Source: Pirellula staleyi DSM 6068 | GTDB taxonomy: Bacteria > Planctomycetota > Planctomycetia > Pirellulales > Pirellulaceae | Assembly: GCA_000025185.1 (NCBI GenBank) | Contig: CP001848.1 | Coordinates: forward strand, 5,280,001 to 5,312,000 | Direction: 5' to 3' | DNA: 32,000 bases | Shown: positions 6,830-27,092 of the stretch, in pieces | Layout of the letters: each line of letters starts with the position of its first letter | How positions within the stretch are numbered: position 1 is the first letter of the stretch | Made by a program: the position numbers and the translations under genes | The notes under the pieces: generated by a model | Databases searched by the model: none | What the model was told of the DNA's origin: nothing | The model's input: the letters and a program-made list of their open reading frames with translations, nothing else

Positions 6830-7150
6830 CGCGCAGCAGTCGCCACGCCCTGGCAAATCGATCGCTCGGCAAGTCGCGCGGCAGTTCACGACGTTCCAAA
6901 CGAATGCTTCGCAAGCGTAGCTCGCAACCACGTGCGCCAAGTAAAATTGCCTTCGCGCGATTCCCCACCCCTACGGTATTTCGAGATGCCCCCGATCCGA
7001 TTGGCGGCAAAATCGTTACGATACAACCTGCTCCGAAGCGACCCACTGTGCGTTCTCGGGCAGTGCGGCTGCGAGGTCCGTTACCAGGCCGATTCCGTCG
7101 GCGAGCCAAGCTCCGTTTTCCCTCTCCTTTGCTGAACATTTTGCGACTTT

Positions 7151-8476
7151 ATGGCAGTAGATACCCCCGCCTCGATTGCAATCATCGGCGCTGGCCCGAT
7201 CGGCCTCGAAACGGCTCTTTACGCTCGTTTTTTGGGTTACGACGTCACCCTTTTTGAACAGGGGGAGATCTGCAGCGGCGTTCGCTCGTGGGGGCACGTG
7301 AAGATGTTCACGCCACTGGGTATGAACAGCTCGCCGCTAGGACTTGCCGCCATCGAAGCCCACGATGAGAACATCGTTTTTCCCGCTGCAGATGCGATTC
7401 TCACGGGCCAGGAGTGGTACGAAAAATATCTGCTGCCGCTATCGCAAACAGATCTGCTGGTCGACAACATCCGCATCGGCACCAAGGTTGTCGCCATCAC
7501 GAAAGAGAACTTGCTGAAGGGTGAGCTCGTTGGGGATGAAGAGCGGGGTGATTGGTCGTTTGAAGTGACCTATCTCGATCCTCAAAACGAGCTTCGCCTC
7601 CGCACCGAGCAGTTCGATGTGGTGATCGACGCCAGTGGTGTTTTGGCACAGCCGCGCGAATGTGGCCTGGGTGGGGTGCGTCCTCCTCTGCCACTTGCAG
7701 AGGAGAAATTCCTACGTACCGAAATCCCAGTCTTCAGCGACAATCACGGATCAGGAGAGCGGGCTTCGAGTCTAGAGTTCTACGGCGGTAAAACGACACT
7801 GCTCGTCGGAGGTGGGTATAGCGCAGCGACTGCAGCGGTGATGTGGAAAGAGCTCGCCGATCAGTTTCCCGGTACGAAACTGATCTGGTCTACACGCCGC
7901 GCTCGACAGACGTCTGCCGACGGCATCAGTGGCCCGATCAAGCGAATCGAAAACGATGCTTTGCCAACGCGCGATGCACTCGCGCGAGAAGCAAACAGCT
8001 TGACGATGCCCGGCAATGGATTTCGAATCGAGCATCTGAGCGAAACGATGGTCGAGCGGATTGAATCCACAGCCGACGGACGTTTGGAAGTCACACTGCG
8101 TGGTGAGAAGCCTTCGAAAATCACGGTTGATCGTATTTTAAGTCTCTGTGGCTATCGGCCCGATCTCGATCTGTTTCGCGAGCTTCAAGTCCATCTTTGC
8201 TACGCTACGGAAGGGCCGATGCGACTCGCAGCCTCGCTGATGAAGTCGGATAAGTCGCAAGGTTCTAGCGCCGACTGTTTGAAGACTTCTTCAGGAGGTC
8301 CTGAAGACTTACTCACAACAGAGCCGAACTTTTATATCCTCGGCGCGAAGAGCTATGGCCGGCGGAGCGACTTCTTGTTTCAATCCGGACTCATGCAAAT
8401 TCGCGATTTGTTTCGCATCATTGGTGATCGCGATACACTCGACCTCTACCAATCGGCCCGTCCACTTCCCAAGTAG
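7151..8476 (+). CDS. FAD/NAD(P)-binding oxidoreductase (two-dinucleotide-binding-domain flavoprotein, YpdA/TrxB-like)
   Basis: The N-terminal Rossmann fold reads IAIIGAGPIGLETALYARFLGYDVTLFE (GxGxxG). A second nucleotide motif is LLVGGGYSAATAA (GxGxxA). The C-terminal EPNFYILGAKSYG is typical of this flavoprotein class. Confidence 0.75.
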   Translation: MAVDTPASIAIIGAGPIGLETALYARFLGYDVTLFEQGEICSGVRSWGHVKMFTPLGMNSSPLGLAAIEAHDENIVFPAADAILTGQEWYEKYLLPLSQTDLLVDNIRIGTKVVAITKENLLKGELVGDEERGDWSFEVTYLDPQNELRLRTEQFDVVIDASGVLAQPRECGLGGVRPPLPLAEEKFLRTEIPVFSDNHGSGERASSLEFYGGKTTLLVGGGYSAATAAVMWKELADQFPGTKLIWSTRRARQTSADGISGPIKRIENDALPTRDALAREANSLTMPGNGFRIEHLSETMVERIESTADGRLEVTLRGEKPSKITVDRILSLCGYRPDLDLFRELQVHLCYATEGPMRLAASLMKSDKSQGSSADCLKTSSGGPEDLLTTEPNFYILGAKSYGRRSDFLFQSGLMQIRDLFRIIGDRDTLDLYQSARPLPK

Positions 8477-8493
8477 ATCGCTGGGCACGTTTG

Positions 8494-9423
8494 ATGATCG
8501 ACTCACCCGAATTAGCAGCCTCGCCAGGAGTACCAGAAGTTCCGCTGTCGCATCTCGATCAGTTGTGGTTTCAGGTGAGTGGCCTGCTATGTAACTTGGC
8601 GTGTCATCACTGTTTTGTGAGCAGTAGCCCGACGAATCGCTCGTTGGAAATGCTTTCGTTCGACCAGATCAAAACGCGGCTTGAAGAATCGATTCCGCTC
8701 GGAGTGAAAGAATATTACTTCACCGGCGGTGAGCCGTTTTTGCATCCGCAAATGACGGAAATCCTCGAGCTTTCTTTGCAATATGGCCCCACGACGGTGC
8801 TGACCAATGGCACCGTTTTGAAAGACTCTTGGCTCGCGCGACTCGCCGCAGTTCAGGCCGCGAGCATCTATTCGCTCGAGTTTCGCTTGTCGATCGACGG
8901 CCCCTCGGCAGCAATCAATGATCCGGTACGAGGCAGCGGAACTTTTGCACGCGCCATGGCAGGTGTGAAGAAGCTGTGTGCTCATGGTTTTCTGCCACTC
9001 ATCACCGCAGTTCGGACGTGGAACGAGGAAGACGAATCGCAGATCCTCAGTGAGTTTGTCGAAGTTTTACGCGAACAGGGCTACGCCCGTCCCCGGCTTA
9101 AAATTCTTCCGTCGCTGAGACTAGGCGAAGAGGCCCGCCGCAGTGGCGCTTATGCCCACGATGAACGAGTGACGGCGGAGTTGCTGATCGATTTCGATCG
9201 CTCACAACTCCTTTGCGAACACGCGCGGCATGTGAGTGTGCGGGGCGTTCACGTTTGTCCGCTGCTGGTGGAACAGCCGACCTCGATCCTGGGCGACTCA
9301 CTCGCAGAATCACTTCAAAAGCCAGCGCGGCTCGATCACGGGGCCTGCTTTACCTGCTATCAATTCGGGGCCATTTGTAGCAACAGCGCCAGCCGCTCGA
9401 TGCGTGGTGAGGAACATGCATGA
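8494..9423 (+). CDS. Radical SAM enzyme with C-terminal SPASM/twitch-like cysteine cluster
   Basis: The CX3CX2C motif CNLACHHC is encoded at 8590-8613. The SAM-binding motif is FTGGEPFL. C-terminal cysteines are CEHARHVSVRGVHVC and CFTCYQFGAIC. The gene starts 17 nt after the flavoprotein stop, at the ATG at 8494 (a TTG at 8491 is also possible). Confidence 0.85.
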   Translation: MIDSPELAASPGVPEVPLSHLDQLWFQVSGLLCNLACHHCFVSSSPTNRSLEMLSFDQIKTRLEESIPLGVKEYYFTGGEPFLHPQMTEILELSLQYGPTTVLTNGTVLKDSWLARLAAVQAASIYSLEFRLSIDGPSAAINDPVRGSGTFARAMAGVKKLCAHGFLPLITAVRTWNEEDESQILSEFVEVLREQGYARPRLKILPSLRLGEEARRSGAYAHDERVTAELLIDFDRSQLLCEHARHVSVRGVHVCPLLVEQPTSILGDSLAESLQKPARLDHGACFTCYQFGAICSNSASRSMRGEEHA

Positions 9424-10235
9424 GTGACCATGGGGCTCGTTCACCGGAGCGCATCGCGCTGCTCGGCGGCGTGTATAGCAACTATCTGGCGCTCGAAGCT
9501 GTGATTGCCGACGCCAGAGAGCAGGGGGCCACGAAGATTTATTGCTTGGGTGATCTCGGCGCGTTTGGTCCGTTTCCCGACCGGGCAATCGAAATCCTGC
9601 GCAAGCACCAGATCGAAACCGTTCGGGGTAATTACGACGACTCAATCGGGCGTGGCCTGGCCGATTGTCAGTGCGGCTATACCGACGAGCGCGACAACCA
9701 TTTCGCTCGGCTCAGTTATGAATACACCTTCAAAAACACTTCAGCAACTTCACGCGAGTTCTTAAGGAGTTTGCCTCCGGAAATCCGCTTCGAGGTGCAT
9801 GGTGTACGGGTGCTGCTGTGTCATGGTAGTCCTCGGAAGATGAACGAATTTGTCTGGGAGTCGACCTCGAGCACCCATTTTCTCGAGTATCTGGCCCGTC
9901 AGCATGCAGCCGACGTGGTCTGCACCACCCATACTGGAATAGCTTGGCAGCGGACACTGAGTGAGGGGCGTTTGTGGCTGAATGTCGGCGCGATCGGACG
10001 CCCCCCGAACGACGGCCTGACGAGTATTTTGTATGCACTTCTCGACTTCTTCCCGAAAACGATGCCGACGGCGCGAGCCACCCTGCGGCGGGTCGCGTAT
10101 GACCATGAGCGACTCGCCGTGGAGATGCGTGCCGAGCAATTGCCAGAGGAGTTTATCGAGACCATTCTGACCGGCTGGTGGACCACCTGCCTCGAGATCT
10201 TGCCAGCCAAAGAGCGAAGTCGCGGCCGGCATTAG
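9420..10235 (+). CDS. Metallophosphoesterase-fold protein (Metallophos_2/YfcE-like) with non-canonical first metal motif
   Basis: Recognisable motifs are CLGDLGAFGP (GD), VRGNYDD (GNxD), LLCHGSP and CTTHTG (GHTH-like). Its ATG overlaps the radical-SAM stop as ATGA (9420-9423), which suggests translational coupling. Confidence 0.75.
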   Translation: MSDHGARSPERIALLGGVYSNYLALEAVIADAREQGATKIYCLGDLGAFGPFPDRAIEILRKHQIETVRGNYDDSIGRGLADCQCGYTDERDNHFARLSYEYTFKNTSATSREFLRSLPPEIRFEVHGVRVLLCHGSPRKMNEFVWESTSSTHFLEYLARQHAADVVCTTHTGIAWQRTLSEGRLWLNVGAIGRPPNDGLTSILYALLDFFPKTMPTARATLRRVAYDHERLAVEMRAEQLPEEFIETILTGWWTTCLEILPAKERSRGRH

Positions 10236-10510
10236 TGCGGGCTCCATGCGGGCTCTATTTCTCGGAGCGGCTGTTTCGTCCAATTCCGCTAAAAATACTC
10301 GCGACACGCACGTCAATCGTCCGCGCGACACGCACTAGTGCTACAAACGGCCCGGTGGGAGGGTGCAACCGGTCCCGAGTCGACAATTTCCACCAAACAA
10401 GGTGGTTGCCAAAGTTGGTAAAGAACTCCGGACTGGGTAAACTGTAGTGGGGCTTCTTATCTATCGGCCCGCTTAGGATTCTTTCACCACGCCTGTCGGG
10501 GACCTCCCTG

Positions 10511-13500
10511 GTGCGACGCGCTCGACGACAGTTCGGTACTGCCCTCCGTGCGCACGGAGTGGGTCGCGCGTACTTCTTGCTGCACCGCTTGCTAGTCGTG
10601 GCTGCCACGCTGCTGGTCGCGCTGCTCGTTGCATCAACGGCGGCTGATGCCCAAACGGGCGCTGTCGATCCACCTCAGCCGACCACTCCCGCGACAGGCA
10701 CCCCCGCCAACACAACGCCGGTCCCGGCACCGCCGGCGACGACAACTCCACCAACCCCCACGGTTCCTCCGGCGACGCCTGCGACCCCACCCGTTCCCAC
10801 AACCCCTGCGCCGATGCCAGCCGCTGGCGATGCAGGGGCTCAGCAGCGTTCGCTTCTCGATACCTATTTGCTGCGCGACAGCAAGGGGAATCTGGTGCCG
10901 GTGATCGGGATGTCGTTCGAAGATTTTGAAAAGCTGCTCCGCTTGCAGCGACAACTTGCCCCTCCTGAGCCACCCAAGTTCTCCATCGACGTCGTGAGCC
11001 TGAAGGGGACCGCCGATGCTTCACAAGCCAAGCTCAGCGCGAAGATCGAAATTCGTACGCAAGCTGCTGGTCGGCATCCTGTTCCGCTCCGCATGACGGA
11101 AGCGATTTTGCTCGACGAAGCAAAGTACGAAGGTCCCGGCGAACTCTTCCTGACGTTCGATGCCGCCGCTGGTGGCTATGTCGCCTGGGTCACTTCGAAA
11201 GGGGCCGAGTCCCACACCATTTCGCTTAACGTTGCTACACCAATCAGCACCGTGGCAGGGCAATCGCGATTGAAGCTCACGTTGCCTCGTGGCACGGAAT
11301 CGTCGCTACGCGTAGCGGTCGCTGAATCTCGCGTGTCGGCCGAACTCGACACGGGCAGCGAAGGGATCTTGAGTGTCGAGGCCGTGGAGGCTGGCGGCAG
11401 CGAAATGGCGGTACTCGGCGCTGCGGGTCAAGTGAGCATGCGGTGGAAACGCGTTTCCACCGGCGATTCGACCGCGCGTAGCATTCTCGAAAGCAGCGGC
11501 GAATTGATCGTGCGAGTCGAAGGCAAAAATCGAATCAGCACCGATGCTCGCCTTCGTGTGCGCAGTTTCGGGTCGGCAGTCGAGAGCTTTCGTGTTCGAT
11601 TGCCGCGTGGCATGGAACTCGTCCCCACCAGTCCCGTCGGTTATCGCGTGGAAGTGGTGAGTGATCCCGCGACCAGCATGATGGAGGCGGACAGTTCCAA
11701 GCGTCCCGCGCAAGTGGTGGAAGTGCGGCTCGATCGCCCTACCAACAGCGTGATCGAAGTCCGCTTGCTCGCGGCACTCGTGCCCGACAGTCAAAATGGT
11801 GGCATGGCTCTCGAGCCTGCTGAATTCGATGTACTCGGAGCTGTGCGGCAGCGTGGGACGGTCGATTTCGTGGTGGAAGGGGACTGGAATCTCAGCTGGA
11901 CCGAAGATAGCAGCGTGCGCCGCATCGATGCAGAAACCGATGTCGCTAGTCCCGCGCGAACCGCTGCCCGCTTCGAATACTTCCGGCAGCCTTGCAAACT
12001 GGGACTCACCGTGGCTTCGCGGCCAACGCGAGTGTTTGTGGAACCGAGTTATGTGGTCTACGTCGATGGCAAATTACTGCGACTCGAAGCGACGCTGAAG
12101 TATCGCTGGCGCGGCACGCAGCCTCAAACGCTCAGTATCGATCTAGGGAACTGGAGCATCGCCAAAGCGGAGCCCGATACGGTGCTCGATCCGACGCGGC
12201 TCTCGCGCGAGGCGCGTCCCCTCGCAATTCCTCTGCGCGACGATATCGCAGTTCCTGCAGACTTCGAAATCAAACTCGAAGCACAGCAAACCCTCGCTGA
12301 AAATAGCTCCGTTGTCGACTTTCTGCTCCCGCGTCCCGACGCCGACATCGTGACCCCCGCATCGGTCACACTGTTGCCCGCCGACAACGTGCAGCTCACC
12401 CCTTCGACCACCGATTTGCAAGGGCTGCTCGCCGATATCGCCGCCTCGTCGGCACGGCTCCCGACGCGCGGTCAACCGGCGCTCACCTATCGCGATTTGT
12501 CGACCGGCGATCCCACTCGCTTTGTGGGAACCATCAAGCTGCTGCCGAGGCGGACGACCCTCAGCTCGGTTGCGACCCTTTCGTTCGCTCGCGAGCGATT
12601 GCATGTCGAGCAGGTCCTCGAGTTCACCGTGGCGCATCAATCGCGTCAATCGTTCGAGCTCCTTTGGCCGCAGTCGGTGGTGCCACAAGATCTGCAGCTC
12701 AAGTTGGGCGAGAAACTTCTTAGCTTCACGCTGGCCGATACGGCAGACGACTTGCGTTCAGGACGTCGCCGACTAGTACTCGATACCGGCGCTCCGCAGC
12801 TTGGCAAGATCGACATTAACGCGACCTTTTCGATGCCGGTTCCAGCCGTGGCCGAGAACGCCTCGGTAAGTTTTCTCGCGCCGCTGCTGACAGCCGCCGA
12901 AGAACCGAATCTACAACTGCTCACCTCCACGGTCTCTGCTCGCACCTCGAGCGAAATTCGTACAACACCACTCACCATCGACGAAGACCTGCTGTCGGTC
13001 GACGCCGCCCGAGGTGATGGTGTGGCCTGGAGCGTCAATCTTCCGAGCGGCAGTTCGCCACTCGAGATCCAGCTCGCCCCACTAGAAGCAGTTCAGCAGC
13101 AACTCACCACCACCGACAAAATGTGGCTGCAGACCTGGCTCTCCCCTTCGGGCCGCGAAGATCGCGCGGTCTGGCAACTCACTACGAGTGCCTCGAGTGT
13201 GACGTTTCGACTCCCCACGATTACAGCTTCCAACATCCTGGTGCTTGTCGATGGAAAGCAAACCACCTTTGCACTGCAACCTTCGGGTGTGCTGAAGATC
13301 GACGTTCCTTCCTCGTCACGCACGCAGGAACGGGTCATCGAACTTTGGTACACGCTCGGCACGGGACTATCGAGCTCCGGTTACTCGCAGCGCACTCTCG
13401 ATCCACCCACGATGGTCGAAGCGCCGAGTACAAGACGATTTTTCTGGCAACTTTGCCTCCCCGAAAGTCAATTGCTGCTCGTCGATCCACCTGGCTATGG

Positions 13501-14056
13501 AAGCCAAACAAGCTGGCAACAGCAAGGTCCCTGGTGGAGCCGCCGCTCGAGTTTGTCGCAGCGCGATTTGGAAGATTGGATTGCGGCAACGCACCAAGAT
13601 CAACTTCCACCGGCGCTGCAGCAGTCGCTGTATGCCGATTTTGGTAAACCACGCCCCCTCGTGGTCACAGTGATTAGCCGTCGTCTATTGATTTTGATTG
13701 TCTCGGGACTCGTTGTCCTCGTCGGACTAGCGATACTTCAGCTGACATGGGCACGGCATCCCAGCCTGCTACTAGTCGCCGGAATAACGATTTTTGCGGC
13801 GAGCGCGATGTTCCCTTACGGCGCATTCCTGGCTGCTCAAGCTGCCATGATTGGCATGGCGGCGATGGTGGCCACCTCTCTCTTTGCCTACTTAACATCG
13901 GGACGAGTTTTCTGGATCACGCCCGCCGCTGTGCCGCGAAAAAGCGTATCGGAAGTTCGTACGCGAGGAGCCCGCCCACCGGTTGCAGCTAGTGGATCAC
14001 ACACCACCACAGCCACTGCTGCTGCAGGATTGGGAGCGTCGGAGATTCAGCCATGA
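10511..14056 (+). CDS. Giant membrane-anchored hypothetical protein A (1181 aa)
   Basis: The domain order is: N-terminal signal/anchor, Pro/Thr linker, about 940 aa soluble region, then three C-terminal TM helices. It is an uninterrupted 3.5 kb ORF with host-like G/C-ending codons. The N-terminus FLLHRLLVVAATLLVALLVASTAADAQ looks like a signal or anchor helix. The three C-terminal hydrophobic helices are encoded at about 13658-13903. The GTG start at 10511 is uncertain, and an in-frame GTG 15 codons downstream is also possible. Confidence 0.8.
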   Translation: MRRARRQFGTALRAHGVGRAYFLLHRLLVVAATLLVALLVASTAADAQTGAVDPPQPTTPATGTPANTTPVPAPPATTTPPTPTVPPATPATPPVPTTPAPMPAAGDAGAQQRSLLDTYLLRDSKGNLVPVIGMSFEDFEKLLRLQRQLAPPEPPKFSIDVVSLKGTADASQAKLSAKIEIRTQAAGRHPVPLRMTEAILLDEAKYEGPGELFLTFDAAAGGYVAWVTSKGAESHTISLNVATPISTVAGQSRLKLTLPRGTESSLRVAVAESRVSAELDTGSEGILSVEAVEAGGSEMAVLGAAGQVSMRWKRVSTGDSTARSILESSGELIVRVEGKNRISTDARLRVRSFGSAVESFRVRLPRGMELVPTSPVGYRVEVVSDPATSMMEADSSKRPAQVVEVRLDRPTNSVIEVRLLAALVPDSQNGGMALEPAEFDVLGAVRQRGTVDFVVEGDWNLSWTEDSSVRRIDAETDVASPARTAARFEYFRQPCKLGLTVASRPTRVFVEPSYVVYVDGKLLRLEATLKYRWRGTQPQTLSIDLGNWSIAKAEPDTVLDPTRLSREARPLAIPLRDDIAVPADFEIKLEAQQTLAENSSVVDFLLPRPDADIVTPASVTLLPADNVQLTPSTTDLQGLLADIAASSARLPTRGQPALTYRDLSTGDPTRFVGTIKLLPRRTTLSSVATLSFARERLHVEQVLEFTVAHQSRQSFELLWPQSVVPQDLQLKLGEKLLSFTLADTADDLRSGRRRLVLDTGAPQLGKIDINATFSMPVPAVAENASVSFLAPLLTAAEEPNLQLLTSTVSARTSSEIRTTPLTIDEDLLSVDAARGDGVAWSVNLPSGSSPLEIQLAPLEAVQQQLTTTDKMWLQTWLSPSGREDRAVWQLTTSASSVTFRLPTITASNILVLVDGKQTTFALQPSGVLKIDVPSSSRTQERVIELWYTLGTGLSSSGYSQRTLDPPTMVEAPSTRRFFWQLCLPESQLLLVDPPGYGSQTSWQQQGPWWSRRSSLSQRDLEDWIAATHQDQLPPALQQSLYADFGKPRPLVVTVISRRLLILIVSGLVVLVGLAILQLTWARHPSLLLVAGITIFAASAMFPYGAFLAAQAAMIGMAAMVATSLFAYLTSGRVFWITPAAVPRKSVSEVRTRGARPPVAASGSHTTTATAAAGLGASEIQP
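10667..10822 (+). repeat. Pro/Thr-rich low-complexity linker coding region within protein A
   Basis: It translates to DPPQPTTPATGTPANTTPVPAPPATTTPPTPTVPPATPATPPVPTTPAPMPA. At the DNA level it is an ACN/CCN-rich, imperfectly repetitive tract. Confidence 0.8.
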
Positions 14057-17000
14057 TCGGCGAATCGTCCTTGCGCCGCTGGCTCGCCCCGCTCGCGCTG
14101 CAACTGCTGGTTACGATGCTCGGCACATTCCTTTGTTTCGGAGCTGATCCCGAACCGACCGAGTCGGTCCTCTACCGCCGCGTGTTTGTTCCCGAAGCTG
14201 ATTTGTCGACCGAAATTCGCGGACTTCTGCCGATTAAGCGAGAAGAATTCGATCGGCTGATTGCCATCGCCGCGCAGCCCAGCAGCGACGCTGGCGCTGC
14301 AACCACCGCGCGGCTGACGCAAGTCGACTACACCGCGCGGCTCGAAGGAGATCAACTGGTTGAAGGGGAACTGCTGGCCGAGGTAACACTCAGCAGCACA
14401 GAACCGACAATCCTCTCGCTTGGTGAAACATCGCTCGCGCTCGGGGCAGGGGAGTGGCTCGGTGGTGCGTCGAAGCCCGCCATCGTCGGAACCGATCGCT
14501 CGGGCAAGGCGATGCTGCTCGTTCAGCAGAGTGGAACATGGCAACAGAAATTCACCGCGCGAGGGCAGCGTGAAGCGACGGTGCTCACGATTCCGCTGAC
14601 ACTTCCCCCCTCGAGCCGCAGTCGCTTACATCTTGATCTGCCAACCGATGTCGAACTGTCGTGCGATGTCGGCATTGTTTCGCGCGATGTAACCTCCGCA
14701 GACAAACAAGTCGGCGGCCCCCAAGAGGAAGCAAGCAAAACGTCAGCCAATCCCTCGACACGACGCTGGATCGTTCAGCTCGGTGGTCATCAGCAAGCCA
14801 GTCTGGTGATCACGCCGCTGGCCTCGGTGGGGCAACTCAGTTCTCTCGTGCTGCTGCGCGAATCGGCCAGCTATTTTCTCTCGCCCGGTGCAATCGACAC
14901 CGAATTTCAGTTGGAATTCGACGTTCACTCGCGCCCCCTCACCGAGCTTTCGATCAAGCTTCCACCGACGGTCGAACCGGTAGCAATCCGCTGGGGCGAA
15001 CAACAGCTGACCTGGACCACGTTCACCGCCGACGACGAAACCAAGACGCTGCGAGTACCGCTCCCAACGCCACTGTCGGGCATGGGACGTGTGATTCAAG
15101 TCAGCACCGTCTCTCCCACACCACTCGCTAGTAAATTCGACTTGCCGCGCATTGCAGTCGAGCATGCAACCTGGCAAGAGGGACGTGCCACCGTCACCGC
15201 CTCGCGTGCGCTGCGACTCCGTGCTACCCCGCGCCAAGGCTGTTGGCAATCAGCGGTCGCCAGCAGCAGTTCGCCACGCTGGGGCGAGTCCCTGCAGTTT
15301 CAGTATCACAAAAGTGATGCTGCTGTAGAGGTCGAGCTCGAATCTCCGCAGCTCCGCCTGGGGATCACCTCGGGAACGATCGTTTCGATCGATGGAACGC
15401 AAATGTCAGGAGTCTTTACTGCCGACCTCACAGCACTCGCCGGAGACCGCTTCGAGCTGACGGCGATCCTCGCGCGACGCTGGATCGTCGATGCGGTGGA
15501 ATCGACACCTGCCAATCTTTTCGAAGATCGCGTCCTTACTCCCACAGGTCCAAATTTGCAGCAGCTACGGATGCGACTCGTCCGCCCCTTACGCGAAGGG
15601 AATACGGTTCGCATCGTCATCCGCGCACATCAGCGACGCTTGGCCCCCGATCAGCAAGTTCCGATCGACTGGCTTCGCATGGTGGAATTCCCCACGATTG
15701 TCGAATCGCGCGAGTGGCTGGCGATTAAATCGAGCGATCCGTCGCTGGTGCCGCAGTGGATTGGGGATGCCAGTATCACGCGTCTCGACCTGCAACGTGC
15801 TACCCCCGCAGAACTGAGTCTGTTTGAATCATCCCCCGGTCCCAACGGAGTGCTGCTCGATCGCTTGAGCAACAACTTGAAGCTCGATGTTCGACGCGCC
15901 GATCCTCGCTTCTCGGCCGAAAGTAACATCACCACCAAACTCGACCGCCGAGGGATCGAGCATGTGCTGGCGGTGAAAGTCATGCCAGAGACCACGGCAA
16001 TTTCGAAGCTTTTGATTCGACTGGCACCGGCTCCCGAAGAAGAACCAACGTGGAGACTTGTGGGAGCAGCAGCCCGCAGTTCGACGATCACACAAACGCT
16101 GCTGAGCCCTCCACCGGGCGATTCGCCGCAGCGCGAGCAGCTTTGGCAACTCGAGTTTTCTACTCCACAAGGTGGCACGTTTGAACTTGAAGCCACCACG
16201 CGTCAAAGCCCCTCGCGCTTGGTTTCGGTCCCACTCCTTTCGCTTCCTCAAGCAACCCAGCAGCAGGGGACGGTCTCGGTCGCAGCGCTCGATGCCACCG
16301 AATTTCAGCTGATCGCCGATCGACTCACGCCCCTCCCTCAGTCGTACGCCGCTAACGTCGTCGAGGCGAGCCGTCATTTCTACCAGTACGATCCGGGACG
16401 TAATGCCACGCTCGTTCTGCAAATCGCGAGTGCGAAAAAAGAGGGCTCTGCCGCGAAGTCGACGGAGAACCTAGAAAAGCTGCCGGAGACAGCAGAAGCA
16501 CCTCGCGCAATTGCGTGGTCGATGGTGGTGCACTCGCGCTATCCGTGGAGTGGCGATGCACTGCACGAAGCGTCGCTTCACCTCGAAAACTGGGGGCTCG
16601 ATCGGCTGCCGATTCGTCTCCCACCGCAAGCGCTGCTGCAAGAGATTGAAATCGATGGCCGCCGCGCTCCGCTGCCAATCGTTCGCCCGACCGATAGTGA
16701 ATTGACCATTGCACTGCCGCGCGACAATCGTCTCTCGAAAGTGGTGGTGCGCTATCAAGCCCCGGCCGAGCCGACCAACTGGCTCTACGAGCGTAAGCTC
16801 GAACTCGTTTCACCTATGCTCGCCATTCCGGTTGCCCACCGGGAATGGCTCGTCACTCCACCTGGCGGAATGCTGCCGATCAACGAGTCGGCCCTGCGCG
16901 TCTTGCCGCTCGATAGCTCGTCGCAAACAGTCGCGCAGCGAGCCCCTGGCGATCGCATTGAACTCGAAACGGGAAAACTAGCGCCCGCCACATTTTGGGG

Positions 17001-20000
17001 CTGGCCTCGGCTGCCACGCTGGCTCAGCAGTGGTTCGCCACCTCGTGCGAAGTCGGCTTCCTTCCGCGCTGCAGGCCCCGTAGCGCCAGGAGCAATCGAT
17101 CCACCACAAACTGCTGGCGATCCCGAACCTGTCTACCGCGTCAATCTGGCATCGGCCGGCGAAACGACACTCATCGTCTACGATCCCACACGAGCCACAA
17201 CGCTCGGACTCGCAGCTGCCTTGTGCTCCATGGGCTTGGTCGTGTGGCTGCTCCGCGAGCGGCTGCTCACCGCGCTCACGAGTGCCCTCGCACTTCTCCT
17301 CCTCTCGATCATCGTCCCGAACAGTCTCCTTCCTCTCGTAGCTGGTGTTTCTGCCGGGATTCTTGCTGGAATTCTCGTCGCGGGACTCTTCCCAACGCGC
17401 GTCGTCGTCGCACGTTTGCACGATGATCGGACCGGCAGCACCACCCGTCTACTTCCCTACGCTGGTGCACTCCTGCTGCTCGCCGCGCTAGCAGGACAAC
17501 TACGATCGCAAGAGTCCGCGCCGATGCCACTCGCGCAGCAACAGCCCATCGCAAAAGTGGTGATCGCTGTCGATGCCGAGAACAAGCCAGTAGGGGATTA
17601 CGTGTTTGTTCCCCCAAACTTCTACGAGACCCTGCTTCGCCGCGAGGCATCAGTCACAACGTCGCAAACCCCGTGGCTGATCCGCGACGCACAGTACGAC
17701 CTGCAACTTTCTCCCTCGGTGACCGACGAAGTGGTTCGTGCGGAAATGCTCGCCGTCACTTACACCATCACCACCCAAAAACAGGCGGAGAAAGTTGCGA
17801 TTCCGCTAAAGCGCGCCGAGCTTCGACTCGTAGAAGGCCGCGCTCAACTCGATGGATTTCCAGCGAGTGCTGTTTGGTCGGAAGATGGCAACTCCCTGCT
17901 GCTCGACATCCCCGCCGCTGGCGACCACAAACTTAAACTCGCTTTTGCTCTGGAAACACGCGTTGAACCACAGCAATCGCGGGTGACAGTTTCTATCCCG
18001 AAAGTGGCTCACGCAGCGCTGCGGATCAGTTCGCCTGTTGCGCTCCAGCGTCTCGAAATCCCTTCGGCCCTCGGTGCCAGCGAAACCTCGCTCGACGAGC
18101 CCCTCACTTACGCCGCGCTGGGTGCCACCTCCCTGCTCGATGTCAGCTGGACCTCGCTTGCCACCGACGAACTGCAGTCGGTTGTCGAAGCCGATCAACT
18201 CCTTTGGTGTCGTATTCGCCCCAGTTCCGTTATCGTCCAAGGGAAATTCATCGTCCGTCCGCTCCGAGGCTCCATTCGCGAAGTGGCGATCACCGCGCCA
18301 TCGAACTATGTACTTTTGCCCGGCAGCAACAACCCGCTGATCGCCCGCTCTTGGAAAACCGAGGGGGAGCCCGCGACGTTTCATTTTGAACTACGCGAGC
18401 GAACTGCGTCGGAAGTGAAGATCGATGCTTCGTTCTTGCTCGCTGGAGGAACTGGTGTTGGGAACGTCGCCATTCCGAAAGTGAACGTTCTTGCCGATCG
18501 TATCGCGCGCAGCTGGGTCACACTTGCGACCGGCAGTGAACTCGAAATCGCTCCGCTCACCGACGAGAAAGGAAAGCTCGATCCTCTCGTGTTTGTCGAA
18601 GCGTGGGGACCAACCACGCTCAGCGAAACGCCCGCCGTGGCACTCGATCTCAGCACCAATACCGCTAGTTCCGTGGTGGTCGCGCCCGCCATCGAACAAA
18701 GCCGCTGCGAGCAATGGATTGATTTCTCGGTCGCGCGTGCTACTTGCAAGATTCAGTTTCAAGCGTCGCTGCAGGGGCTCTCGTCGCATCATTTCGAGCA
18801 CCGCATTCGCCTCCCCGCATCGGTCGTAGTAAAGCGACTCGTCGTACGCGAAGACAACAAGCTCGCCCCTTGTCGCTGGGCGCAGTCGAAGGATGGCACG
18901 GTCGATGTGCTGTTGCTACAGCCTCCCGCCACACTGCAGAACATCGAACTCGAAGCCTCGATCCCCGCGCCTCAGCAGGGCAAGCTGGAACTGGCGGAAT
19001 TCCTCGTCGAAGGAGCCGAATGTGCCGGCAGCCGAGTCCGTCTCTATCGACTTCCCGACGTGCAGCTGTCACTGGGAAAACTGGTCGGCTACGTCGCAGA
19101 ACCCAATCCTGCAGTAGGGGAAGATTGGCCACTCCTCGGACGTTTAGTAGCTGAGGTTCGCCGTATTCCGCTCGAGCAAATGAATCAGCGCCGTGAACTC
19201 GAACTTGTCATCGCCCCTAATGAACCAGCGGCGCACGGAAAACTCATCACCACCATCGAGCCGAGCGACGACGGTTGGCAAGCCAAACTTTCCGCCGATT
19301 TCACATCCACTTCGGGCTCGATCGACATCTTCCGTGTTCTCCTTCCAAGTCAATTGGAAGCGCCGTCGGAAATCACACCTGCTGTCGATCACCAACTCGT
19401 CACCACGATGGGCGAATCGCAACGACAACTTGTCGTTAAGCCACCCAAACCTGTCGACAGCCAATTTGCATTTTCACTAACGGCAAAACTGGCCCCGGCG
19501 ATGGGTGGCATTTTACGAGTCCCGATGCCAATGCTTCTCGATCTCACCGAAGTCGACTCGCTGGTCGTGCTGCCGCAGCGTGTCGGATCGCAAACGTTGA
19601 ACTGGCAAACTTCGGGGCTTCAGTCACTGCCACGCGATGCTGCTGTGACACTCGTTCCCGACTTGGCAGCGAGTAGCGAAGTGTTTCGCGTGGTGAGTTC
19701 GTCACCGTCAGCGGAACTGGCAATCACTGCTCCGTCTAGCAGCAATCCGACGCTCTTTCTGGCCGACTATCAGCTGATCATCGACTCCACCGGATCGGTG
19801 AGTGGAAACTCCGTTTTCCTACTCGATTCCGCTGGAAAATCGACGATTCCACTCGAACTTCCTCCGCGCAGCACGCTGCTGTCGGTCACGATCGACGGCT
19901 GCCTTGTCATCCCACAAGTCATTTCGTCGGGCCAAGTTCTCGTACCACTTCCGATCACCGGCGTACCGCAAGTGATCGAGGTCAACTGGCTCTACAAAAC

Positions 20001-20793
20001 GTCGCTTGCTTCCACTACTTCCCAGGAAACACTTGAACTTCCGCAGCTCGCAGCGATTGCTGCCGCTCGAACTTGCTGCACTCTGCGATCTTCAGACGAT
20101 GTATCGCTCGTCAACTTGCCATCGAGCCATCAAGTGGTTTCTGGTTTTCGAATCGACACCGATCGACTTTCGGCTTTTGTCGACTCGCGGCTGTCCCTAC
20201 GGAGCAGTAAAAGCATCGATATGTCGTCGCAAGCGATCAGCCAATGGCTGCAGAGTTCGCAAGCGGAAGCTCTCACGGTCTACAACGATTTGCAAGCGAG
20301 GGCCTCTCGAAGTTCGCCCGACGAACTTGTGATGTACCAAGCGCTGGGTAATAAGATCCGATTTACGACAAGCTCGCAGCTGCAGCCCGGTGACACAATC
20401 GACGTGCCGCAGTGGCTGATTCCTAAACGAACTTCCGAAGCACGTGTTCCTGAAGTTTCACACGTACAGGGCTGCACCGGTGAAGGGGCGCTGCGGAGCG
20501 TCGCGGTGGCACGAACCGAGCCGCGCGATAGCCGTCCTGCCAGTCATCGCTCTCTCGCTTTGGCCGCTCTCGGAGCGATCATCCTTGCTTCCGTCAGCAT
20601 CTTACTGATCAGCCCCTTGCGACACTGGATCGTCACGCATCTTGGATTCGTCTGCGTCCTGACTGGACTCGCAGTTTGGCCATTGCTTCCGGATGCTTGG
20701 ACTTCGATTTTGCTTTGGCTCATCCTGGCTGTCATCAGCGGCATGCAGCTGCCGCGCCGCTGGATGGTGACCTCGACACAACAAGTACGGTAG
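14053..20793 (+). CDS. Giant membrane protein B (2246 aa): two A-like modules separated by an internal four-helix TM cluster, ending in a three-helix TM cluster
   Basis: It is an uninterrupted 6.7 kb ORF whose ATG overlaps the stop of protein A (ATGA, 14053-14056). It has an N-terminal signal-like helix (LAPLALQLLVTMLGTFLCFGA). The internal TM cluster is at aa 1051-1150 (17203-17502). The terminal TM cluster is at aa 2167-2233 (20551-20751). Confidence 0.85.
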   Translation: MIGESSLRRWLAPLALQLLVTMLGTFLCFGADPEPTESVLYRRVFVPEADLSTEIRGLLPIKREEFDRLIAIAAQPSSDAGAATTARLTQVDYTARLEGDQLVEGELLAEVTLSSTEPTILSLGETSLALGAGEWLGGASKPAIVGTDRSGKAMLLVQQSGTWQQKFTARGQREATVLTIPLTLPPSSRSRLHLDLPTDVELSCDVGIVSRDVTSADKQVGGPQEEASKTSANPSTRRWIVQLGGHQQASLVITPLASVGQLSSLVLLRESASYFLSPGAIDTEFQLEFDVHSRPLTELSIKLPPTVEPVAIRWGEQQLTWTTFTADDETKTLRVPLPTPLSGMGRVIQVSTVSPTPLASKFDLPRIAVEHATWQEGRATVTASRALRLRATPRQGCWQSAVASSSSPRWGESLQFQYHKSDAAVEVELESPQLRLGITSGTIVSIDGTQMSGVFTADLTALAGDRFELTAILARRWIVDAVESTPANLFEDRVLTPTGPNLQQLRMRLVRPLREGNTVRIVIRAHQRRLAPDQQVPIDWLRMVEFPTIVESREWLAIKSSDPSLVPQWIGDASITRLDLQRATPAELSLFESSPGPNGVLLDRLSNNLKLDVRRADPRFSAESNITTKLDRRGIEHVLAVKVMPETTAISKLLIRLAPAPEEEPTWRLVGAAARSSTITQTLLSPPPGDSPQREQLWQLEFSTPQGGTFELEATTRQSPSRLVSVPLLSLPQATQQQGTVSVAALDATEFQLIADRLTPLPQSYAANVVEASRHFYQYDPGRNATLVLQIASAKKEGSAAKSTENLEKLPETAEAPRAIAWSMVVHSRYPWSGDALHEASLHLENWGLDRLPIRLPPQALLQEIEIDGRRAPLPIVRPTDSELTIALPRDNRLSKVVVRYQAPAEPTNWLYERKLELVSPMLAIPVAHREWLVTPPGGMLPINESALRVLPLDSSSQTVAQRAPGDRIELETGKLAPATFWGWPRLPRWLSSGSPPRAKSASFRAAGPVAPGAIDPPQTAGDPEPVYRVNLASAGETTLIVYDPTRATTLGLAAALCSMGLVVWLLRERLLTALTSALALLLLSIIVPNSLLPLVAGVSAGILAGILVAGLFPTRVVVARLHDDRTGSTTRLLPYAGALLLLAALAGQLRSQESAPMPLAQQQPIAKVVIAVDAENKPVGDYVFVPPNFYETLLRREASVTTSQTPWLIRDAQYDLQLSPSVTDEVVRAEMLAVTYTITTQKQAEKVAIPLKRAELRLVEGRAQLDGFPASAVWSEDGNSLLLDIPAAGDHKLKLAFALETRVEPQQSRVTVSIPKVAHAALRISSPVALQRLEIPSALGASETSLDEPLTYAALGATSLLDVSWTSLATDELQSVVEADQLLWCRIRPSSVIVQGKFIVRPLRGSIREVAITAPSNYVLLPGSNNPLIARSWKTEGEPATFHFELRERTASEVKIDASFLLAGGTGVGNVAIPKVNVLADRIARSWVTLATGSELEIAPLTDEKGKLDPLVFVEAWGPTTLSETPAVALDLSTNTASSVVVAPAIEQSRCEQWIDFSVARATCKIQFQASLQGLSSHHFEHRIRLPASVVVKRLVVREDNKLAPCRWAQSKDGTVDVLLLQPPATLQNIELEASIPAPQQGKLELAEFLVEGAECAGSRVRLYRLPDVQLSLGKLVGYVAEPNPAVGEDWPLLGRLVAEVRRIPLEQMNQRRELELVIAPNEPAAHGKLITTIEPSDDGWQAKLSADFTSTSGSIDIFRVLLPSQLEAPSEITPAVDHQLVTTMGESQRQLVVKPPKPVDSQFAFSLTAKLAPAMGGILRVPMPMLLDLTEVDSLVVLPQRVGSQTLNWQTSGLQSLPRDAAVTLVPDLAASSEVFRVVSSSPSAELAITAPSSSNPTLFLADYQLIIDSTGSVSGNSVFLLDSAGKSTIPLELPPRSTLLSVTIDGCLVIPQVISSGQVLVPLPITGVPQVIEVNWLYKTSLASTTSQETLELPQLAAIAAARTCCTLRSSDDVSLVNLPSSHQVVSGFRIDTDRLSAFVDSRLSLRSSKSIDMSSQAISQWLQSSQAEALTVYNDLQARASRSSPDELVMYQALGNKIRFTTSSQLQPGDTIDVPQWLIPKRTSEARVPEVSHVQGCTGEGALRSVAVARTEPRDSRPASHRSLALAALGAIILASVSILLISPLRHWIVTHLGFVCVLTGLAVWPLLPDAWTSILLWLILAVISGMQLPRRWMVTSTQQVR

Positions 20794-21120: not shown

Positions 21121-21195
21121 CGGGGCGTAGCTCAGCCTGGCTAGAGCGCTACGTTCGGGACGTAGAGGCCGCAGGTTCAAATCCTGTCGCCCCGA
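21121..21195 (+). tRNA. tRNA-Pro (anticodon CGG)
   Basis: I folded the cloverleaf by hand. The acceptor stem pairs CGGGGCG with CGCCCCG. The D stem pairs GCTC with GAGC. The anticodon stem pairs CTACG with CGTAG around the loop TTCGGGA (anticodon CGG, G37). The T stem pairs GCAGG with CCTGT around the loop TTCAAAT. The discriminator is A, CCA is not encoded, and the length is 75 nt. Confidence 0.95.
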
Positions 21196-21770
21196 CTTGA
21201 CTGGACAAGAAGCCCTTCGGCGAGAACGTCGAAGGGCTTTCTTATTGTGGGGACTAGAGTTACGTCGACGAGCTTCGAGTTCAAACAGACGATTTCTAGA
21301 AGTAGTCGCTTTTCTGCGATATCGGCCGCAAGCCATTTAGCCCCAAGAGCTTGCGAAAGTTCAAACACTTTCACCGCCCAATCGCCTCTTTCCGACTGCT
21401 GACGAGCAGTTCCTTCGAGTCGCGTTTGCAGCTTCGTTTCCTTGGAACGTAGTTCCGACTGCTTCGCGGCAAAAGTCTCCGATTCAATCTCATCGAGGAG
21501 ACGCAGGTTCAGCAGACGATCTTTCTGCTTCCGAACAGCGTCGACTTCTCGTTGCAATTCATCGCGCTCAGACGTCGCATCTTGCTCCGCAGTTGTGGAC
21601 TTGGCACGAAGCACTTCGACCACCCAGCAGCAAACACCCTCATCTTCGATTCGCATCCTCTGAAACAGATCGAGCATTTGGCGATCTAGTTCCGATTCCA
21701 CCAGACGAACACGAGGATGACCTGCGGCGTTGTAGCGAGCGCATCGATAGTACCGATACTCGCATGCCAA
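21177..21770 (-). pseudogene. 5'-truncated large serine recombinase (zinc beta-ribbon remnant + coiled-coil C-terminal region only)
   Basis: The translation starts mid-domain at EYRYYRCARYNAAGHP, which resembles the second half of the recombinase zinc ribbon (the YVYYHC-type motif). A long coiled-coil follows (ELQREVDAVRKQKDRLLNLRLLDEIESETFAAKQSELRSKETKLQ), then EKRLLLEIVCLNSKL...RKPFDVLAEG, which is typical of the C-terminus of this family. No resolvase catalytic domain is present, and an in-frame TGA lies at 21792-21794. The last codons run through the tRNA terminator hairpin and into the tRNA 3' end. Confidence 0.7.
21210..21247 (+). terminator. Intrinsic terminator downstream of tRNA-Pro
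   Basis: A 10-bp perfect stem pairs AAGCCCTTCG (21210-21219) with CGAAGGGCTT (21230-21239), followed by TCTTATTGT. Confidence 0.6.
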
Positions 21771-21824: not shown

Positions 21825-22970
21825 CTAATCCGCCCCTGACGGTTTTGAGGCAGATTGGATCCATTTCTCGAATGCAGCGAAACGCTGCTCTTCATCCTTA
21901 AAACCAAGGGTGGATGGCGAAAAAAGGACTCGGTCATCTGGCCGTAGATACTTAAAACCAAAATCTGCCGGGTTTTTGCCTGCCCGAACAATCAGAGACG
22001 CCAAAGCAATGTCGCGAAGCTGTGATTTGATCACAACACCTCTTGAGAAAAAGGTTTCTATCGGCGATGCATCATCCAAATAAACCTGAACCAATTTGTC
22101 GTCCTCGGCGAGGCGATATTTTGCAAGTGCCAGAAGTGCGAACTGCTTTTGGTTGGGAGGAGTTGCTGGATCGCGTAGTAATTCTCGCGCAATCGGAGCC
22201 GCGCTGTCGTCAACGTACCGAAGTCCATCCATCATCCGCTCGAAGGCCGAGCGTTGATCTCCGCCACCCCGTAGCCATCTCGATTGAATGGCACTCCAAG
22301 CGTTGTCAGTACTCACCAAGTCGACAATGGCTGAATGTCGCCAAAGTTCTTTGATCAACTGCCGATCTTCCTCGGAAATGAGCGATTCGTACCTGATCCC
22401 CAAGTAAACGACGGTCAGTGCTGTACTCCCCGAGATGCTCATACGCCCTTGCTGGTTCTTCAAAATAGATCGTACCTGTCGGCAACGCTCCAAGAACCGC
22501 CTGGGGTAAGTGTCCTCAGCACTCGCCGATTCTTCCCATAGCGATGACTCCTCTTTTTGCAGACTAAGGAAGGTTTGGCGTGCGACACGCGATGTTCCGA
22601 ATAGCTTGCGGTAGCGATCCCAATCAGGAAATTCGTGATTGTCGACCCCCTCCGGATCATTGAGGAAAGCTTCGGCGCGGAGTTGGAAGTCGGTGTCGCG
22701 TACGGCTGCCCACAGCTTTGCACAGCGCCAACGAATCTCTGGATCACCTCCGCGCAGGCCAGCAAGGAGTTCCGACTTGGCCGCTAAACCCAACTCCGAT
22801 AATTGAAGACTGGCATTCTCGCGTACTTCAAACGATTCATCCCCCAGTTGTTGAATCCACTGGCCAATCTGTATCGGCCTAACGCTCGAATCGTCACCCA
22901 CCGCAGCGTTCAAGGCGCAGCAGTAAGCGATGCAAAGGATGATTAGTGATTTGCGAGCCCCAGACGACAT
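21825..22970 (-). CDS. Secreted protein with N-terminal HEAT-like motif
   Basis: The signal peptide is MSSGARKSLIILCIAYCCALNAAVG. The segment QWIQQLGDESFEVRENASLQLSELGLAAKSELLAGLRGGDPEIRWRCAKL matches the LGxxxFxxREx-A-xxL...DxEVRxRA HEAT-like pattern common in planctomycete secreted proteins. The rest is unassignable. It starts 29 nt downstream of the preceding gene in the same operon. Confidence 0.7.
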   Translation of the reverse strand: MSSGARKSLIILCIAYCCALNAAVGDDSSVRPIQIGQWIQQLGDESFEVRENASLQLSELGLAAKSELLAGLRGGDPEIRWRCAKLWAAVRDTDFQLRAEAFLNDPEGVDNHEFPDWDRYRKLFGTSRVARQTFLSLQKEESSLWEESASAEDTYPRRFLERCRQVRSILKNQQGRMSISGSTALTVVYLGIRYESLISEEDRQLIKELWRHSAIVDLVSTDNAWSAIQSRWLRGGGDQRSAFERMMDGLRYVDDSAAPIARELLRDPATPPNQKQFALLALAKYRLAEDDKLVQVYLDDASPIETFFSRGVVIKSQLRDIALASLIVRAGKNPADFGFKYLRPDDRVLFSPSTLGFKDEEQRFAAFEKWIQSASKPSGAD

Positions 22971-22999
22971 GCGACTATTTCCCCATTCAGATGCTTGCG

Positions 23000-25597: not shown

Positions 25598-25647
25598 TGC
25601 GATTGACTCTCTGAAGCTTGCGCCGTGTGCTTGAGGGGACAAGTGGG

Positions 25648-26535: not shown

Positions 26536-27092
26536 GCTTCACCTTCATTGGCCAGATCCAGTGTGCCAGTGGAAAGCTCTCGCAGACGAAGTAGGCCTCG
26601 TCGCGAGTGAGTCTTCACAGAACCGAGAGGCATGTTTAGCATTTCGGCTGTTTCCGCCTGGGATAGACCGTGAAAGAAAATCAACTCTAGTACTTGCCGC
26701 TCCTCGCACCTCAGTTGAGATAGCAGTTCGCGAACACGACCAACCTCATCGCGCAGCTCTAGACCATTCAAGGGAATTGCAACAGGCGTCGTCCCTTTCG
26801 CATCGATCGGTATGGTCTTGACCTGCCGTGTATGTTTGCGATGACGGTCGATTAACCGACGTCGCGCTATCATGGCGACAAAAGTCGCCTCCGAAGGCTC
26901 TCGCTGAGGGTCAAATCGCGATGCATGCCGAAACAAATCGATAAATATCTCTTGAACTGCATCCTCCGCATCGCTGGTCGTCGGAGACATGCGCCGCGCA
27001 AGTGACCACACGAGTCCGCCGTAGCGAGCGAGGCACTGGTCGACGGCCCCTGGATTTCGTGCCGCGACTTTATCAAGGATCGTGTCTGGCAC
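26532..27092 (-). CDS. ECF (sigma-70 family group IV) RNA polymerase sigma factor
   Basis: The region 2 motifs are DAEDAVQEIFIDLFRHASRFDP and FVAMIARRRLIDRHRK. Region 4 reads EERQVLELIFFHGLSQAETAEMLNMPLGSVKTHSRRGLLRLRE. The start codon is GTG. Confidence 0.9.
   Translation of the reverse strand: MPDTILDKVAARNPGAVDQCLARYGGLVWSLARRMSPTTSDAEDAVQEIFIDLFRHASRFDPQREPSEATFVAMIARRRLIDRHRKHTRQVKTIPIDAKGTTPVAIPLNGLELRDEVGRVRELLSQLRCEERQVLELIFFHGLSQAETAEMLNMPLGSVKTHSRRGLLRLRELSTGTLDLANEGEA

Follow-up and report, generated by a model that had tools for sequence, protein, structure and literature searches.

The subject of this analysis is a pair of adjoining genes, Psta_4066 and Psta_4067, in a 32,000-nucleotide stretch of Pirellula staleyi DSM 6068 (contig CP001848.1, positions 5,280,001 to 5,312,000 of the forward strand), which is called the window below and within which all coordinates are given. 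The genes correspond to two open reading frames (ORFs), A and B, and encode very large proteins that together carry three anciently paralogous modules, one in A and two (B1 and B2) in B. A preliminary description, made from the sequence, had given the ORFs as 1181 and 2246 amino acids long and joined by an ATGA at 14053–14056, and these coordinates were confirmed. The best homolog of ORF A (P0001) is 99% identical to it and belongs to a cluster that includes ADB18719.1 / Psta_4066, with 1181 amino acids, and ORF B matches Psta_4067 at 100% identity. The G+C content of both genes, approximately 0.60, is a little higher than that of the flanks. Their features are listed here with the evidence for each assignment; pLDDT is the predicted local distance difference test score of the structural model.

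10511–14056, plus strand: ORF A (Psta_4066), module A, 1181 amino acids, GTG start
10511–10654, plus strand: predicted signal peptide of A, residues 1–48 (hydropathy, model helix 18–45, n-h-c pattern of the family)
10655–10858, plus strand: Pro/Thr-rich disordered linker of A, residues 49–116 (sequence; pLDDT below 50 for residues 46–116)
10859–13678, plus strand: predicted ectodomain of A, residues 117–1056 (AlphaFold2 model)
10862–10948, plus strand: opening motif of A, residues 118–146 (conservation; alignment with B1 and B2)
13223–13345, plus strand: closing motif of A, residues 905–945 (in-register alignment with B1 and B2)
13679–13900, plus strand: predicted C-terminal three-helix membrane anchor of A, residues 1057–1130 (hydropathy and model)
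13901–14053, plus strand: predicted cytoplasmic tail of A, basic and disordered, with a conserved TTATA-like stretch (sequence, conservation, model)
14041–14044, plus strand: GGAG, a Shine-Dalgarno-like motif within the end of the A coding sequence, its first base 12 nucleotides upstream of the B start codon
14053–14056, plus strand: ATGA overlap of the B start and A stop codons (ORF calls; comparison of 23 two-gene loci)
14053–20793, plus strand: ORF B (Psta_4067), modules B1 and B2, 2246 amino acids, ATG start
14053–14148, plus strand: predicted signal peptide of B, residues 1–32 (hydropathy; N-terminal pattern)
14149–17193, plus strand: predicted B1 ectodomain, residues 33–1047, paralog of the A ectodomain (hhalign)
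17194–17418, plus strand: predicted three-helix membrane cluster of B1, residues 1048–1122 (hydropathy; A–B1 profile alignment)
17419–17502, plus strand: predicted basic cytoplasmic loop (..GSTTR) and internal signal-peptide-like helix, residues 1133–1150 (hydropathy; about 50 B homologs)
17503–20544, plus strand: predicted B2 ectodomain, residues 1151–2164, paralog of A and B1 (hhalign)
20545–20754, plus strand: predicted three-helix membrane cluster of B2, residues 2165–2234 (hydropathy)

The preliminary description had read one and the same architecture in A, B1 and B2, and had suggested that the modules be aligned pairwise and by profile. Pairwise comparison proved borderline, with best BLASTP E-values of 0.039 for A against B and 0.009 for B1 against B2; one weak A–B2 alignment is nonetheless colinear over about 500 residues. 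Profile comparison was decisive. Family profiles from 57 A homologs and 22 B homologs, with B split at residue 1125, were compared by hhalign, which aligned A with B1 at a probability of 99.7% (E 1.9e-25, 934 columns), A with B2 at 99.5% (E 5.3e-23, 813 columns) and B1 with B2 at 99.8% (E 8.8e-29, 821 columns), each pair as a single colinear alignment with 14–16% identity. The scores of these real pairs (215–268) lie far beyond those of reversed or column-shuffled profile controls (14–35, E 0.01–0.9). With plain HMMER, the B2 profile also matches the A module of fused relatives, in register, at E 1e-9 to 1e-12.

The opening and closing motifs that had been read by eye in each module were placed in register by the profile alignments. 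The opening motif of A, LLRDSKGNLVPV.G..FE.FE.LL, forms a beta-hairpin plus helix and is the most conserved stretch of the family, and its residues 131–146 align with 58–73 of B1 and 59–73 of B2; in the closing motif, E944 of A aligns with position 852 of B2, which is a Glu too, and with 898 of B1. The A–B1 alignment extends through the membrane-helix cluster. Taken together, the hhalign significance, the control scores, the in-register motifs and the HMMER cross-detection show that the paralogy of the three modules is real and ancient.

A and B belong to no described family, domain or system that we found, in agreement with the earlier statement that no domain is recognisable in them. At the sequence level, Pfam and NCBIfam gave 0 matches at E<=1 for A, B, B1 and B2, and among the 22 B homologs no Pfam family recurred. 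PADLOC, which covers anti-phage defence, gave 0 matches at E<=0.1, the A profile had no match among PDB sequences, and a plasmid tblastn search was without match. HExxH, Walker A, thioester (CxEQ) and CxxC motifs were all absent from a catalytic-motif scan of A and B, in which B gave a single GxSxG match and a single LPxTG-like match. No paper naming Psta_4066, Psta_4067 or their accessions was found in a literature search, and nothing relevant was found on ribophorin in Planctomycetes. The proposal that the family is undescribed has thus stood up to searches for a matching family, domain, system or paper, including the specific possibility of a BatD-like protein or a known DUF, for which no assignment was found. 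BatD and similar beta-sandwich membrane proteins of the bacterial periplasm share the general plan of the modules, from a signal peptide through a beta-rich periplasmic portion to a membrane anchor at the C-terminus; the modules are set apart by their size, three-helix anchor and triple paralogy. The bat operons are linked with MoxR; here there was no BatD match in Pfam at E<=1 and no bat/MoxR–vWA operon setting, MoxR being present in the lineage of locus L002 only.

The fold of the modules was approached through AlphaFold2 models of A. The full-length model (63 sequences) has a mean pLDDT of 81.5 (at least 90 for 611 residues) and a predicted TM-score (pTM) of 0.46; a model of residues 580–1135 (97 sequences) reached a pLDDT of 88.8 and a pTM of 0.62 and is all-beta, followed by three helices. 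In the full model the ectodomain is uninterruptedly all-beta from residue 118 to 1056, mostly at pLDDT above 90, and consists of a chain of roughly nine beta-sandwich units, in keeping with the 900–1000 residues of beta-like segments per module read earlier from the translations. Internal domain repeats within A are weak (best hhalign probability 74%), and beta-sandwich domains of ectodomains are a generic building block.

When the full A model was compared with the PDB by Foldseek, Ost1/ribophorin I came first (E 5.5e-8), followed by integrin alpha ectodomains, M1 aminopeptidase N-domains, PIG-T and complement C5. For the fragment 580–1135 the eight best matches were all Ost1/RPN1 (PDB 6c26, 6ezn, 6s7o; E 1.8e-11 to 3e-10), with a probability of 1.0 and the whole target aligned over about 450 columns, yet with a TM-score of 0.26–0.33 and a root-mean-square deviation (rmsd) of about 14 Å; judged from the model, the likeness appears to lie in domain type and order, i.e. 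two beta-sandwiches and then a helix, and not in rigid superposition. The next group for this fragment comprised integrin alpha legs, from E 3e-7, and then mu-adaptin C-domains and M1 aminopeptidase N-domains. A viral fold library returned generic beta-arrays only, and DUF11-type proteins were among the fold matches.

Ost1, a non-catalytic subunit of the eukaryotic oligosaccharyltransferase, has one helix and, on its lumenal side, two beta-rich domains that are alike; it has been reported to bind glycosylated peptide (PMC7226087). As predicted for module A, it has a signal peptide, tandem beta-sandwiches facing away from the cytoplasm and then a membrane helix, and it is non-catalytic, as is proposed below for the modules. 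One could therefore propose, although we consider it unlikely, that A and B are an Ost1-like accessory, in which beta-sandwich pairs hold a nascent (glyco)peptide or a lipid-linked glycan for a glycosylation or envelope-polymer enzyme encoded elsewhere. The eight top fold matches of the membrane-proximal half, which include the membrane helix, would fit this proposal, as would the peptide binding reported for Ost1 and the further matches to mu-adaptin C-domains and to the N-domains of M1 peptidases, both peptide-binding. Ost1, however, has two domains and one helix, whereas the modules of A and B, three in all, each comprise about nine domains and a three-helix anchor; the Ost1-like part makes up less than half of a module. 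Sequence similarity to Ribophorin_I was not detected either, with no Pfam match at E<=1 for A, B and the 22 B homologs and no Ost1/RPN1 among PDB sequences at E<=10 with the A and B profiles, and the TM-scores are low. Finally, Ost1 is a subunit of the eukaryotic endoplasmic reticulum (ER), whereas A and B are bacterial, predicted to be periplasmic, and lack an STT3-type partner nearby: among the neighbours at 28 loci, to which the search was confined, there was no STT3/PglB gene, and no other glycosyltransferase is conserved beside the pair. As a bolder idea, the membrane-proximal half may be truly homologous to eukaryotic ribophorin I.

The other fold relatives suggest comparisons of a more general kind. 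The integrin alpha legs (thigh, calf-1, calf-2), like other beta-sandwich stalks anchored in a membrane, resemble the modules in being a long beta-sandwich chain leading to a membrane anchor, in paralogous or heteromeric subunits, with E-values down to 1e-7; the TM-score is about 0.1, however, and the beta-propeller/FG-GAP head and any Pfam match are absent here, so the likeness is generic. In M1 aminopeptidases (LTA4H, ERAP2, aminopeptidase N) the N-terminal beta-sandwich superposes on one domain of about 225–230 residues of the fragment with an rmsd of 6–8 Å and a probability of 1.0, but these enzymes have a catalytic HExxH domain, whereas A and B have neither HExxH nor a sequence match to them. 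Membership of the alpha-2-macroglobulin or complement macroglobulin-domain proteins finds no support in a Pfam match or a CxEQ motif, and the fold matches to C5 had probabilities of 0.21–0.25.

The integrin and DUF11-type matches, the other beta-arrays and the sheer size of the proteins are what one would also expect of ordinary giant surface adhesins or cell-surface proteins, which are abundant in planctomycetes. We regard this explanation as extremely unlikely: the three C-terminal helices of each module would tether the proteins to the cytoplasmic membrane, tandem repeats are absent from the sequences, as are adhesin, dockerin and sorting domains (Pfam gave no FG-GAP, Big, Cadherin or PKD match, which speaks against integrin-alpha-like or bacterial Ig-like adhesins), and the one-to-one orthology with fixed length and order described below differs from the rapid repeat turnover typical of adhesins.

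By hydropathy, every module has a hydrophobic N-terminal segment and a C-terminal three-helix cluster, with one additional helix, at B 1133–1150, preceding B2. The three clusters, anticipated in the preliminary description, were found at residues 1049–1129 of A (model helices at 1057–1130), 1048–1122 of B and 2165–2234 of B, and the distribution of Arg and Lys around them is positive-inside and fits an N-out, C-in orientation. In the A anchor R1082 is invariant and Q1110, P1102 and W1127 are nearly so; within the membrane helices no acidic or basic residue is conserved, the conserved residues being G, P, Q and W together with one loop Arg. The N-terminal segment of each module had been described as a signal or anchor helix and looks more like the former: most A and B N-termini have, by eye, a basic n-region, an h-region and AxA followed by Q, D or E, a family-wide n-h-c pattern that resembles cleavable signal peptides of the general secretory (Sec) pathway. 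In A the hydrophobic core spans residues 19–48, ending ...TAADA/Q, and cleavage is predicted. A twin-arginine (Tat) signal in A was considered and rejected, as only P. staleyi has the RRxF-like stretch at the N-terminus, which is moreover remote from the hydrophobic core.

At the internal junction of B, most of about 50 homologs have a basic residue and then 13–21 uncharged residues, often with an AxA/AQ-like motif nearby, and the junction helices (L019, L020, L026 and the approximately 50 B homologs) have short h-regions of about 11–16 hydrophobic residues. They look more like cleavable signal peptides than membrane spans, and the B1–B2 junction resembles a signal peptide left over from a gene that was once separate, which makes polyprotein processing by signal peptidase possible. 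Because the helix that follows the basic B1 loop would lead the chain outward again, B2 is predicted to be periplasmic too, and the earlier estimate of about 3000 extracytoplasmic residues is predicted here as well. With the N-terminal helices read as cleavable signal peptides, the mature pair would have 10 spans (3+3+1+3), or 12 with the signal peptides retained.

This layout invites comparison with the resistance-nodulation-division (RND) and SecDF proteins, which, like A and B, have a duplicated unit of helix, large periplasmic domain and helix cluster, with a total of up to 12 helices. A new transporter or channel with 12 potential helices (3 x [1+3]) and three large periplasmic domains would account for the 10–12 helices counted, and the sole matches of the B profile among PDB sequences are to transmembrane helices 2–4 of AcrB. 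The proposal is nevertheless very improbable, in our view. The AcrB matches are non-significant (E 0.23–9), the periplasmic parts are all-beta, unlike the RND porter domains, and RND/SecDF proteins have two repeats of 1+5 helices whereas A and B have three of 1+3 and lack proton-relay residues, no charged residue being conserved in the helices. Nor is an ATPase, adaptor or outer-membrane factor conserved nearby.

The pair is conserved across Pirellulales. More than 160 homologs of A were found at E<=1e-3 in a word-indexed search, all of them ‘hypothetical’ and without a Pfam domain, and the family alignment has 40 invariant columns. With HMMER, the A profile gave 3,913 matches at E<=1e-3 (1,739 at E<=1e-30) over 1.84 billion cluster representatives, again all hypothetical. 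Among the matches listed, named sources were Pirellulaceae, Pirellulales or unclassified Planctomycetota only, with Anatilimnocola and Pirellula as cultured examples. B homologs have a constant length of about 2,100–2,500 amino acids, and orthology is strictly one-to-one and single-copy.

The A–B pair has a 4-nucleotide overlap, ATGA or GTGA, in 23/23 two-gene loci checked, as would be expected from the translational coupling suggested earlier, and both pair and overlap are kept even in a clade with B at 22% identity. GGAG, or a one-base variant of it (CGAG, TGAG), stands at the equivalent position in most of the 23 loci (L002–L028). As this motif is embedded in the end of the A coding sequence, one near-invariant residue of the disordered A tail, Glu E1178, may owe its conservation to a constraint at the nucleotide level, exerted by the putative ribosome-binding site of B, and not at the protein level.

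In one clade the two genes have become one. Fusions of A, B1 and B2 in a single ORF, in the same order, were found in three Pirellulales metagenome-assembled genomes (MAGs), two metagenome proteins and one truncated contig, the complete ones having 3,410–3,901 amino acids. The preliminary description had asked for split and fused versions alike; the fully fused one-gene form exists, while a three-gene form with B1 and B2 split was not seen among the loci examined. The clear triple fusions group as a single clade when the A modules are placed in a neighbour-joining tree, and several independent triple fusions were therefore rejected, with P0227 as an ambiguous case. This protein (1742 amino acids, on an 81 kb ENA contig) has an A module that lacks the membrane cluster, followed by the first half of B1, and falls outside the fused clade; it may have arisen by a separate fusion, be a copy in decay or result from an error of assembly.

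No flanking gene is common to more than 4/28 loci, the neighbours being unrelated housekeeping genes. Since the module set and its order are constant and no flanking gene is conserved, the A–B unit is self-contained, always with three modules in fixed order. Three candidates for a conserved partner were rejected, a MoxR protein (one lineage), a dockerin protein (four loci) and a flavoprotein (four loci). The MoxR-type AAA ATPase (L002, 8642–9673) stands directly upstream of the A gene, with a forkhead-associated (FHA) domain protein before it, in one MAG lineage only. The dockerin-type protein, about 1,000 amino acids long, is encoded by a divergently transcribed gene just upstream of the A gene in an Anatilimnocola-like lineage (4 loci only: L001 at 6387–9431, L003 at 6645–9479 on the minus strand, and also L010 and L012).

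Our favoured reading, held with slightly better than even confidence, is that Psta_4066 and Psta_4067 encode one Pirellulales-specific envelope complex, a pseudo-trimeric, non-enzymatic scaffold or binding platform in the periplasm. Each module would be exported through a Sec-type signal peptide and fold periplasmically, as about 1,000 residues in roughly nine beta-sandwich domains, with its C-terminal three-helix anchor holding it in the cytoplasmic membrane and a short basic tail facing the cytoplasm. Within B, the second module would keep its signal peptide as an internal start-transfer helix that re-exports B2. A fixed 1:1:1 ratio of modules would be secured by the (A/G)TGA overlap with GGAG, by the B1–B2 fusion and, in one clade, by the triple fusion, and the modules would pack side by side as a pseudo-threefold heterotrimer on a bundle of 9–12 helices. 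The weakest step is the last, namely that the complex would act as a structural or binding platform in the periplasm, standing on the cytoplasmic membrane; its most likely job would be to hold or space a polymeric partner (a polypeptide, glycan, wall or outer-membrane component) at a set distance from the membrane.

Of this picture, the analysis shows the two genes, the paralogy of their modules and its conservation, the coupling signals and fusions, the all-beta fold and the lack of known domains in the sequence; we infer the topology, the heterotrimer and the non-enzymatic scaffold or binding role. The heterotrimer follows from the invariant number and order of modules, the conserved coupling and the fusion of partners (Rosetta-stone logic), and a non-enzymatic platform is favoured because there is no catalytic, nucleotide-binding or charged-membrane signature and no conserved partner. 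The fold relatives of the membrane-proximal half, i.e. Ost1, M1 N-domains and integrin legs, are beta-sandwich modules that serve as stalks or hold ligands. The ‘dedicated envelope machine or scaffold’ of the preliminary description is likewise something that we infer.

Several considerations weigh against this picture. Function is deduced from anatomy alone, and the heterotrimer from stoichiometry and fusion logic only. Beta-sandwich arrays are compatible with many roles, the lack of known motifs may leave room for a new enzyme, and the Ost1 match may amount only to ‘two beta-sandwiches plus a helix’. The domain arrangement is uncertain at the pTM values of the full model and the fragment (0.46 and 0.62); the structural model is of A, and an A-like fold of B1 and B2 is assumed on the basis of profile alignment. 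Signal peptides and topology were assessed by eye and hydropathy, and the taxonomic range comes from pattern-limited, top-hit-limited searches.

The planctomycete envelope has a plastic, invaginated cytoplasmic membrane and a very large periplasm. In this setting A and B could also be a trans-envelope strut or ‘press stud’, which ties the cytoplasmic membrane to the wall or the outer membrane and controls the plastic periplasm, perhaps where crateriform structures lie. A module of about nine beta-sandwich domains could reach tens of nanometres, with a likeness to integrin legs, on a firm multi-helix anchor, and the unit is single-copy, self-contained and lineage-wide. Crateriform structures in planctomycetes are described as press-stud-like contacts between the outer and cytoplasmic membranes, in a paper that names no protein component (PMC5394234). 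We nonetheless find a strut decidedly unlikely. Nothing links the A and B genes to these structures, which are found in Planctomycetes at large (Planctopirus, Gemmata), whereas homologs with a named source come only from Pirellulaceae, Pirellulales and unclassified Planctomycetota; no peptidoglycan- or outer-membrane-binding domain was detected in A or B, and at a pTM of 0.46 the chain may be either extended or compact. A still bolder version, in which the trio forms the cytoplasmic-membrane foot of a press stud of the crateriform type, with B and the fusions being polyproteins cut by signal peptidase I into three subunits, seems to us quite improbable. Polyprotein processing at internal signal peptides is, to our knowledge, essentially without precedent among bacterial chromosomal proteins.

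Whatever the exact role of the proposed platform, the deep conservation of the three-module set, at about 3,400 residues per genome and with divergence to 22% identity, implies an important function. Giant ‘hypothetical’ membrane proteins are common in Planctomycetota, which tempers the weight of the finding, and there is nothing unusual about the components of the modules, which are beta-sandwich chains, signal peptides and helix anchors. For their assembly plan we can name no known counterpart: three paralogs of 1,100 residues stay together as an unvarying trio, whether coupled or fused, and carry signal peptides within the chain. We rate this as a new kind of envelope component. A large, membrane-anchored, lineage-specific and single-copy periplasmic complex would be a testable candidate for a part in planctomycetal envelope architecture. 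The pair is also a clear example from nature of how stoichiometry is controlled, first by coupled translation and later by fusing the genes; it may represent a membrane polyprotein in bacteria, with signal peptides inside the chain; and it includes a bacterial protein that finds its best structural match in a subunit of the eukaryotic ER, Ost1/ribophorin I. A definition of the family would annotate several thousand ‘hypothetical’ entries, even for a purely structural role.

Within A and B there are antisense ‘shadow’ ORFs, e.g. 11306–11794 on the minus strand, which look conserved and have equivalents at 22 loci. They are probably not genes, their conservation being likely because they mirror the conserved, high-GC coding strand.

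Upstream of A, on the same strand (7151–10235), lie genes for a flavoprotein (Pyr_redox), a radical-SAM protein and a metallophosphoesterase, the latter two with a 4-nucleotide overlap at 9420–9423. A homolog of the flavoprotein is encoded upstream of the A gene at L004, L011 and L021 also. A short hairpin at 10239–10255 follows the gene upstream of A, and a 275-nucleotide spacer precedes A. Downstream, a tRNA-Pro(CGG) gene (21121–21196, plus strand) begins about 330 nucleotides after B, and immediately 3' of it stands a strong hairpin with a 14-bp stem (21209–21240), which was rejected as the terminator of the A–B pair, as its position directly after tRNA-Pro assigns it to the tRNA.

A run of minus-strand genes at 21825–27092 encodes an extracytoplasmic function (ECF) sigma factor (26532–27092), an RskA-type anti-sigma factor (25648–26535), an 895-amino-acid protein of no family (23000–25687) and a protein with a weak, sub-threshold HEAT-repeat match (21825–22970), and may be an ECF-controlled envelope operon. 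The window further holds genes for a TM2-domain protein (2391–2822, plus strand), a MORN-repeat protein (3961–5514, plus strand), a CheB-like methylesterase with a receiver domain (5651–6940, minus strand) and an NhaA Na+/H+ antiporter (30155–31534, minus strand).

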